A DNA stretch of 42,780 nt from Enterobacteria phage mEp043 c-1: the sequence record NC_019706.1; one strand, given 5' to 3'. Position numbers and translations under genes: made by a program. Position 1 is the first letter of the stretch. Each line of letters begins with the position of its first letter. The notes below the pieces were generated by a model, which was given only the letters and a program-made list of their open reading frames with translations, was not told where the DNA came from and ran no database searches. This document shows, piece after piece, positions 28,583 through 28,832 of this stretch.

Positions 28583-28753
28583 TCAGAATGGACATGGCCC
28601 AAGGAAATAACGCTGATTTAATACTTCAGTCTTTGCCGCATTTAAAAATACGCGAACACCTTCACGATCTCCCTTCTGGCGATACATTAACGCCTGCTGC
28701 GTGTACATGCGTCTCTGTAACTTGCTCTCCTTCACTGTGGTTGCAAGTGACAT
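28583..28753 (-). CDS. Small basic protein (Arf-position)
   Basis: 56 aa; strong RBS AAGGAG 7 nt before ATG; ends 11 nt before erf; overlaps 28662-28832 in another frame. Confidence 0.45.
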   Translation of the reverse strand: MSLATTVKESKLQRRMYTQQALMYRQKGDREGVRVFLNAAKTEVLNQRYFLGPCPF

Positions 28754-28832
28754 GAATATCTCCTTCGTTACCGATTAATTCTTTCATCTGACGAATGAAT
28801 TCTTCGTCTGACCAGTTATCTGTAAAACTCAT
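28662..28832 (-). CDS. Small acidic protein, alternative or overlapping reading frame
   Basis: 56 aa from the ATG coupled to the upstream stop (ATGA); overlaps the Arf-position ORF by 92 nt. Confidence 0.35.
   Translation of the reverse strand: MSFTDNWSDEEFIRQMKELIGNEGDIHVTCNHSEGEQVTETHVHAAGVNVSPEGRS

Follow-up and report, generated by a model that had tools for sequence, protein, structure and literature searches.

Two small reading frames between kil and erf of phage mEp043 c-1: constraint in one frame across a 92-nt overlap

The genome of Enterobacteria phage mEp043 c-1 (NC_019706.1; the whole stretch of 42,780 nt is referred to here as the window) carries, between a kil gene and erf, two small open reading frames that lie on the same strand and share 92 nt. 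The arrangement raises the question of whether both frames encode functional proteins. Long same-strand stretches read in two frames are well known from lambda Rz/Rz1 and from phiX174, where each of the two products has a function and conservation extends to both frames. The initial annotation of the window left two options: either one of the frames is spurious, or the two constitute a genuine overprinted pair. Neither option fits cleanly. The downstream frame, ORF B, is a conserved gene, and the 5′ part of the upstream frame, ORF A, is also conserved, whereas the last 30 codons of ORF A are unconstrained. The locus thus resembles the lambda and phiX174 overlaps in its geometry and differs from them in that the B frame alone is constrained, while the overlapping part of A varies in both length and sequence.

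Organization of the locus

Every gene of the locus, including ORF A and ORF B, is carried on the minus strand, in the order given in Table 1. The initial description of the two frames is confirmed: an acidic frame of 56 codons joined by ATGA to the stop of a Kil-like gene, a basic frame of the same length behind a strong AAGGAG site, 92 nt shared in different frames, and a location in the Kil/Arf region. The start of ORF A and the stop of kil share the ATGA. The calculated pI of ORF A is 4.6 (11 acidic and 3 basic residues) and that of ORF B is 10.1 (10 basic and 4 acidic residues); ORF B is in the +1 frame relative to ORF A. Read in the A frame, the AAGGAG site of ORF B corresponds to codons 23-25 (E-G-D). 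Between the stop of ORF B and the erf ATG (28572) lie 10 nt.

Table 1. Features of the kil–erf region, in window coordinates
Feature	Coordinates	Strand	Remarks
cIII	28966-29097	−	
kil (Lambda_Kil, 50 aa)	28829..28981	−	Pfam PF06301, E 1.6e-20; annotated as mEp213_042
ORF A, 56 aa plus stop, acidic	28662..28832	−	mEp213_041; phrog_2123, E 4e-40
ORF A, non-overlapping 5′ part, codons 1-26	28754..28832	−	conserved module MSFTDNWSDEEFIRQM...
AAGGAG Shine-Dalgarno site of ORF B	28760..28765	−	6 nt ahead of the ORF B ATG
92-nt overlap	28662..28753	−	A codons 27-56 plus stop; B codons 1-31
ORF B, 56 aa plus stop, basic	28583..28753	−	mEp213_040; WP_000050554.1; phrog_1723
erf (ERF-family strand-annealing protein)	27967..28572	−	Pfam PF04404, E 5.6e-44; mEp213_039
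SSB-like gene	27584-27967		next after erf; abc2 lies beyond

A 501-nt query spanning the overlap is identical (100%) to phage mEp213 (JQ182733), at the same coordinates. Both frames are also annotated in HK97 (gp42.1 and gp42), Sf6 (genes 30 and 29), HK022-like phages, and others; the arrangement is an ordinary one and is already annotated. The HK97 and Sf6 pairs are direct orthologues of the ORF A/ORF B locus, with the difference that the HK97 frames are fused (see below).

ORF B belongs to the HkaM family

ORF B is a real, independent conserved gene of the HkaM family. It matches phrog_1723 over residues 1-56 (profile positions 3-58 of 58; E 4.5e-34), as HkaM of phage HK620 does (E 3.6e-33), and because it is a member of a conserved protein family its open frame lies beyond chance. 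Homologues with no overlapping A-like ORF are found in HK620 (hkaM), g341c, ES18, ST64T, Erwinia phage 59 (48% identity to ORF B), and Salmonella phage ABTNLsp11242 (70%), and each of these stand-alone proteins scores on phrog_1723. The order of genes is kil, B, erf in g341c, ES18, and ST64T, and in HK620 hkaM comes directly after kil. In HK620, g341c, and ES18 the hkaM-type gene thus follows kil without any overlapping frame; in the window, by contrast, the A frame also runs through the first 31 codons of ORF B. The members of the HkaM group (HK620 HkaM, ST64T Orf-66, ES18 gp50, Sf6 gp29, and HK97 gp42) are 56-62 residues long and have in common with ORF B the conserved residues, the terminal Pro-Phe, and a position directly upstream of a gene for a strand-annealing protein.

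An alignment of 53 members of the family, from Escherichia, Salmonella, Enterobacter, Citrobacter, Serratia, Pantoea, Yersinia, and Erwinia, displays 14 invariant or nearly invariant residues: A4, T6, S10, R14, A21, R25, G28, L37, E43, N46, F50, L51, P55, and F56. Seven of them, A4 to G28, are encoded within the overlap. An AlphaFold2 model of ORF B based on the family alignment (pLDDT 92.6) predicts a helical hairpin (helices at residues 7-27 and 30-51) whose C-terminal tail is flexible. Fold searches with this model returned generic helical hairpins alone (best E 1.0 in the PDB and 0.24 in BFVD), a profile search of PDB sequences with ORF B gave no match, and NCBIfam and Pfam contain no family for either ORF A or ORF B. 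Because an exhaustive profile search of 1.84 billion proteins retrieved just 32 cluster representatives, the B family is narrow and confined to phages of Enterobacterales. The same search revealed no informative domain fusions; longer matches were rejected as fusions, being deletion or run-on artefacts.

The linkage of B to the gene that follows it is nearly absolute. Of 229 loci, 225 have a gene for a strand-annealing recombinase as the next gene, 7-10 nt beyond B; the recombinase may be of the Erf (PF04404), Rad52_Rad22 (PF04098), or Sak4-like AAA_24 type. Among the remaining loci, two end before the next gene and one has a gene for an HNH endonuclease between B and erf. This linkage suggests that ORF B may act with the recombinase whose gene it precedes. 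HkaM itself has been reported as “of unknown function”, having first been labelled arf by position only (PMC5928155), and oligonucleotide recombineering with the complete HK620 module did not exceed that obtained with only sak4 and ssb (PMC5928155).

The portable head and the variable tail of ORF A

In P22 the place between kil and erf is occupied by arf, whose product stimulates Erf-dependent recombination according to the genetic evidence of Poteete et al. (1991), as cited in PMC12315714; Arf aids recombination by Erf and is not essential for it (PMC12315714). ORF A has the same map position, is likewise small and acidic, and has a similar N-terminal (F/W)(S/D)DEEFI motif. There are also differences. 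ORF A is parted from erf by ORF B, whereas P22 has no B and its arf is coupled to erf by ATGA; in addition, P22 Arf (MQHEFSDEEFIALIS...; 47 aa) ends in a conserved WDEFAGYYS for which ORF A has no counterpart. The match of ORF A to phrog_2445, the profile that includes P22 Arf, is weak and extends over residues 5-26 only (E 0.042), and a search of Pfam PF17585 (Arf) gave no match at E up to 1. Direct comparison with the Arf family by hhalign aligns 22 columns at 36% identity (probability 67.5%, E 5e-5). Sequence comparison therefore points to a link with P22 Arf that is weak. It is possible that ORF A is translated and that it functions in the manner of Arf.

Conservation in the ORF A family is confined to the first 20-30 residues, which include the weak Arf-like SDEEFI motif. 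The AlphaFold2 model of ORF A contains a single helix, at residues 9-21, and is of low confidence elsewhere, the tail included. The head module MSFTDNWSDEEFIRQM... is common to A-like ORFs of 35, 44, 52, 56, and 60 residues. An A-like ORF coupled by ATGA follows kil in all 80 loci that were selected through Kil, in forms of 52 residues (Sf6 type), 56 residues (mEp213 type), and 35 residues; the last of these (MSFTDNWSDEEFIRQMNKMLNQHKEQEKDDDSDSE) has no B downstream in the Kil-selected loci. In Salmonella phages of the SPN9CC type the A head follows cIII and belongs to an ORF of 60 residues that shares 95 nt with a diverged B-like gene. At another locus (L401) an A-like ORF of 44 residues overlaps a further B-like allele by 47 nt, and a Sak4-like gene comes next. 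In HK140 (L088, 1052-1159) a 35-residue A-like ORF (MSFTDNWSDEEFIRQMNKMLNQHKEQEKDDDSDSE) is joined to cIII by ATGA and shares 23 nt with the gene that follows; the RefSeq record has no annotation for it, although at least 1000 contigs carry this protein (P0177).

The overlaps of A-like ORFs with the genes downstream of them thus measure 23, 47, 80, 92, or 95 nt, and these differing lengths and overlaps indicate that the length of A tracks the downstream gene. Mosaic breakpoints fall at the ATG of A, at the ATG of B, and just past the stop of B. In every class the Shine-Dalgarno site of the downstream gene lies within A codons ~22-28; in the A-like ORFs of HK140 and SPN9CC, the codons that hold AAGGAG in ORF A contain a matching AGGAG, which precedes the downstream gene of each phage. 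The tail of A, from which the peptide HVTCNHSEGEQVTETHVHAAGVNVSPEGR is taken, differs between alleles (...HAAGVNVSPEGRS versus ...HAESSLVSP), while the same stretch of B keeps A-L-x-Y-R-x-x-G-D-R-E-G...E-V-L-N-Q despite heavy divergence of the nucleotides.

Selection and chance in the overlap

Retrieval of loci through B or through A biases a sample toward the frame that was used; for this reason, loci retrieved through Kil were used, together with a reciprocal A-selected sample. A scan of genome contigs gave 9 loci, and the first retrievals of related loci gave B-identical loci only. The counts of variants outside the overlap are collected in Table 2; the population samples include prophages that may be decaying.

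Table 2. Distinct variants outside the overlap
Region and sample	Variants	Non-synonymous	Synonymous	Stop	Neutral fractions	Rate ratio
B-only, Kil-selected	40	16	24	0	0.64/0.30/0.06	~0.3
A-only 79 nt, Kil-selected	16	12	3	1	0.72/0.23/0.05	~1.3
A-only 79 nt, larger sample (free of bias in this part)	34	20	13	1	0.72/0.23/0.05	~0.5 (P ~0.03)

Within the overlap the Kil-selected sample contains 12 distinct variants. All of them alter A: eight are silent in B, and the other four alter B as well. The silent fractions expected under neutrality are ~0.25 for B and ~0.29 for A (binomial P 0.003 and 0.016, respectively). Loci selected through B yield 19 distinct overlap variants, 18 of which are silent in B; 16 of those 18 alter A, and a natural stop at A codon 37 is silent in B. 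No variants are present in the overlap among 64 loci with identical A. Both of these reciprocal samples point in the same direction as the Kil-selected one. The overlap is constrained in the B frame alone, and the 30 codons of the A tail are without constraint at the protein level. The first ~50 nt of the overlap hardly vary across the E. coli alleles, so that rare variants are the only guide to constraint on A in that block. The synonymous-site comparison that had been proposed as a check on the overprinted-pair option has thus been carried out; it reveals constraint in B and none in A across the overlap, and conservation there supports the B frame only.

Selection on the head of A is weak at best. 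Premature stops in ORF A occur in a few prophages, and in combination with the weak purifying selection on the head they imply that A may lack a function.

That the A frame remains open so far into B is nothing out of the ordinary (P ~0.18). Of 20,000 synonymous re-encodings of B, made with codons sampled from neighbouring genes, 17.6% kept the A frame free of stops for 92 nt or more. In natural stand-alone homologues of B the corresponding frame has an open length of 14-113 nt, and of 95 nt in the g341c-type genes, which have no A. Selection for an open A frame was rejected on the basis of the re-encoding (P 0.18) and of these stand-alone genes.

Fused forms of A and B

In HK97 two extra bases (CATGTCACACGCGAG; two 1-nt insertions) fuse A(1-43) to B(19-56), and the fusion is annotated as gp42.1; a change of ATT to ATG provides an in-frame internal start behind the B Shine-Dalgarno site, from which gp42 begins. 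The fusion (L002, 1652-1903; HK97 24791-25042) corresponds to window positions ~28695-28706, and the form with two additional nucleotides is present in the HK97 record alone. It could be a real mutation of the strain or a sequencing error of the 2000 era.

A second fused ORF (P0001, 82 aa) is found on at least 24 NCBI E. coli contigs (L402 and L403, 401-649; window ~28700). Here a 1-nt deletion (GTACACGCAG to GTAC-CTCAG) joins the frames within the same ~10-nt spot as in HK97. The spot is the border between a block common to both B alleles and a divergent block. The other fused ORFs have differing junctions and are mostly singletons.

Origin of the overlap

The most satisfactory explanation, which we regard as probable, is that ORF A and ORF B are separate and independently mobile genes of the pL (early-left) operon that overlap by happenstance, without double constraint. 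It is based on homology, on the independent occurrence of each gene, on the mosaic breakpoints, and on the asymmetry of selection. ORF B would be translated from its own strong Shine-Dalgarno site to give a basic helical-hairpin protein, and its frame would be the one selected across the overlap. ORF A would be a short acidic Arf-like frame, translated by ATGA coupling to kil. Its functional part would presumably be the first 20-30 residues, in which a single helix bearing the SDEEFI motif precedes acidic residues, and codons 23-25 would double as the ribosome-binding site of B. Mosaic recombination may have placed a B cassette behind this portable module of A head plus Shine-Dalgarno site. 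Because the A frame has no stop until 92 nt into B, A would gain a tail of 30 residues, unconstrained and probably disordered; the length of the tail would be set by the point at which the first A-frame stop falls in the downstream gene. On this view ORF A probably encodes a short peptide of Arf type, to which mosaic joining has added the last 30 codons as an incidental run-on. The initial interpretation is partly supported: neither ORF is simply spurious, and yet the pair is not doubly constrained. A literature search found no expression data (ribosome profiling or proteomics) for ORF A or ORF B.

The chief competitor, rather unlikely in our judgment, denies that ORF A is a gene. The 79 nt that separate kil from B would then form a leader or “linker” with the ribosome-binding site of B; it would look conserved merely as part of a mosaic block shared in recent time, and its frame would be open by chance. 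The near-neutral behaviour of the A-only region is what such a linker would display (rate ratio ~0.5-1.3, one stop among 16-34 distinct variants), and non-synonymous changes outnumber synonymous ones when A heads are compared across classes. The low confidence of the ORF A model, the weak link to Arf, and the omission of A by PGAP in mEp213-type prophages point the same way. A mere linker is, however, difficult to reconcile with an ATG that overlaps the upstream stop behind two different genes, kil and cIII, with a 35-residue stand-alone form (P0177) on at least 1000 contigs, or with an A-like ORF that is intact in ~246 of 249 loci. Moreover, the SDEEFI core matches the genetically defined Arf of P22 at the same map position, with a profile E of 5e-5. 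A genuine overprinted pair, with both frames functional and selected throughout the 92 nt, seems very improbable. The overlap does recur in diverged pairs (the mEp213, Sf6, and L401 types and the SPN9CC type, in which A is ~41% and B ~33% identical), the first half of it is nearly invariant among E. coli phages, and the mEp213 and SPN9CC tails of A share short resemblances, EQV..T.V and VSP.GRS. The last are accounted for by conservation of the same nucleotides in the B frame. Against dual coding stand the distribution of variants (none of 12 synonymous in A, 8 of 12 silent in B), the dependence of A-tail length and sequence on the B allele (overlaps of 47, 80, 92, and 95 nt), and the existence in nature of a B-silent stop at A codon 37. 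The same open frame is found in B alleles without an upstream A, for example that of g341c, and is expected by chance in 18% of re-encodings.

The least probable proposal, to which we attach almost no weight, is that the true product combines the N-terminus of A with the C-terminus of B through programmed +1 frameshifting and that the fused ORFs of 82-83 residues reveal it. HK97 gp42.1 is exactly such a fusion, fused 82-residue ORFs are present in databases, with one lineage on at least 24 contigs, and AGGGAG lies just upstream of the UGA stop of A. The fusions nevertheless arise from different indels at different junctions, most of them are singletons, and the HK97 form is restricted to its own record. 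The stop of A lies elsewhere in the Sf6-type allele, and a slippery or shift-prone codon is conserved at neither stop. ORF B, for its part, has a strong Shine-Dalgarno site and a start of its own and stands alone in many phages. Since the A stop shifts among alleles, no shift-prone site is conserved, the indel junctions are heterogeneous, and B has an independent start, programmed frameshifting was rejected. Preference remains with two separate genes that have been joined by mosaic recombination.

The C-terminal tip of ORF B

With few exceptions, proteins of the B family have ...FLGxxPF as their last residues, with the stop codon immediately after; in ORF B this segment is encoded at 28583-28600. 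The exact Pro-Phe end is present in 13 of the 15 distant representatives that were retrieved, and the two others (P0256 and P0258) are frameshifted or run-on proteins. Endings within the family include ELPF, EIPF, CPF, and PPF. They resemble the C-terminal tips of single-strand binding proteins: DDDIPF in E. coli SSB, DDSIPF in the SSB-like protein of the window (27584-27967), and NDYPPF in the SSB of HK620. The tail of HK620 SSB is required for the stimulation of Sak4 (PMC5928155).

It is conceivable, although on the sequence evidence we consider it doubtful, that proteins of the HkaM family mimic or adapt the SSB tip. The pocket that receives the SSB tail, whether in the phage annealing protein or in a host client of SSB, could be a docking site for ORF B, and such docking would tune recombination or block a host nuclease. 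Docking of this kind is conceivable because B adjoins genes for annealing proteins of whatever family. The Pro-Phe motif and the gene linkage are observed; an interaction with an SSB-tail pocket is pure inference. The terminus and the adjacency to annealing-protein genes together constitute a testable lead beyond the ordinary.

A further similarity concerns the annealing proteins themselves. The C-terminal segments of Erf (encoded at 27967-28100) and of the AAA_24 Sak4-like protein of Erwinia phage 59 (L083, 1380-2243) are alike (...AQDVYNIRRDELEGAAA versus ...AKDVYDIRKGELEQVA), and the two proteins were clustered together because of this similarity. The resemblance suggests that strand-annealing proteins with different core families may possess an exchangeable C-terminal module.

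Prevalence and annotation

Of 5426 complete E. coli genomes, 1112, or about a fifth, carry the locus. PGAP annotates B only in mEp213-type prophages and A only in one Sf6-type prophage (L318-L320). The foregoing analysis settles a recurrent ambiguity of annotation, in which pipelines keep one ORF or the other inconsistently. It also furnishes a worked example of how phage mosaicism, and not dual coding, gives rise to a long same-strand overlap, and a caution for screens that seek overprinted genes. The biology that remains, that of two very common small proteins whose genes flank the recombination module, is modest but real. In PHROG-derived annotation (NC_019720, NC_019719, and others) both 56-residue proteins are named “recombinase”, without support.

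Several minor features of the region were also noted. A weak terminator-like hairpin, CGTGAAGGTGTTCGCG followed by the T run TATTTTTAAA, lies at 28641-28666 on the minus strand, at the stop of ORF A and inside ORF B. In HK620 an annotated terminator, tL2D, likewise lies inside hkaM. Terminator-like sites number 2, as against 0.7 expected in shuffled sequences, and the Sf6-type allele is without the terminator-like T run; the hairpin at the ORF A stop is probably a matter of chance or specific to the allele. A search of Rfam with 27500-30200 detected no RNA family. Antisense to ORF B, a 60-residue ORF without family support occupies 28573-28755 of the plus strand and is presumably a mirror-frame artefact. 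Upstream of cIII, at 29122-30090 on the minus strand, lies an ORF of 322 residues with long, highly charged TolA-like repeats rich in A, E, K, and R; a prophage copy of it bears the PGAP name “cell envelope biogenesis protein TolA”.
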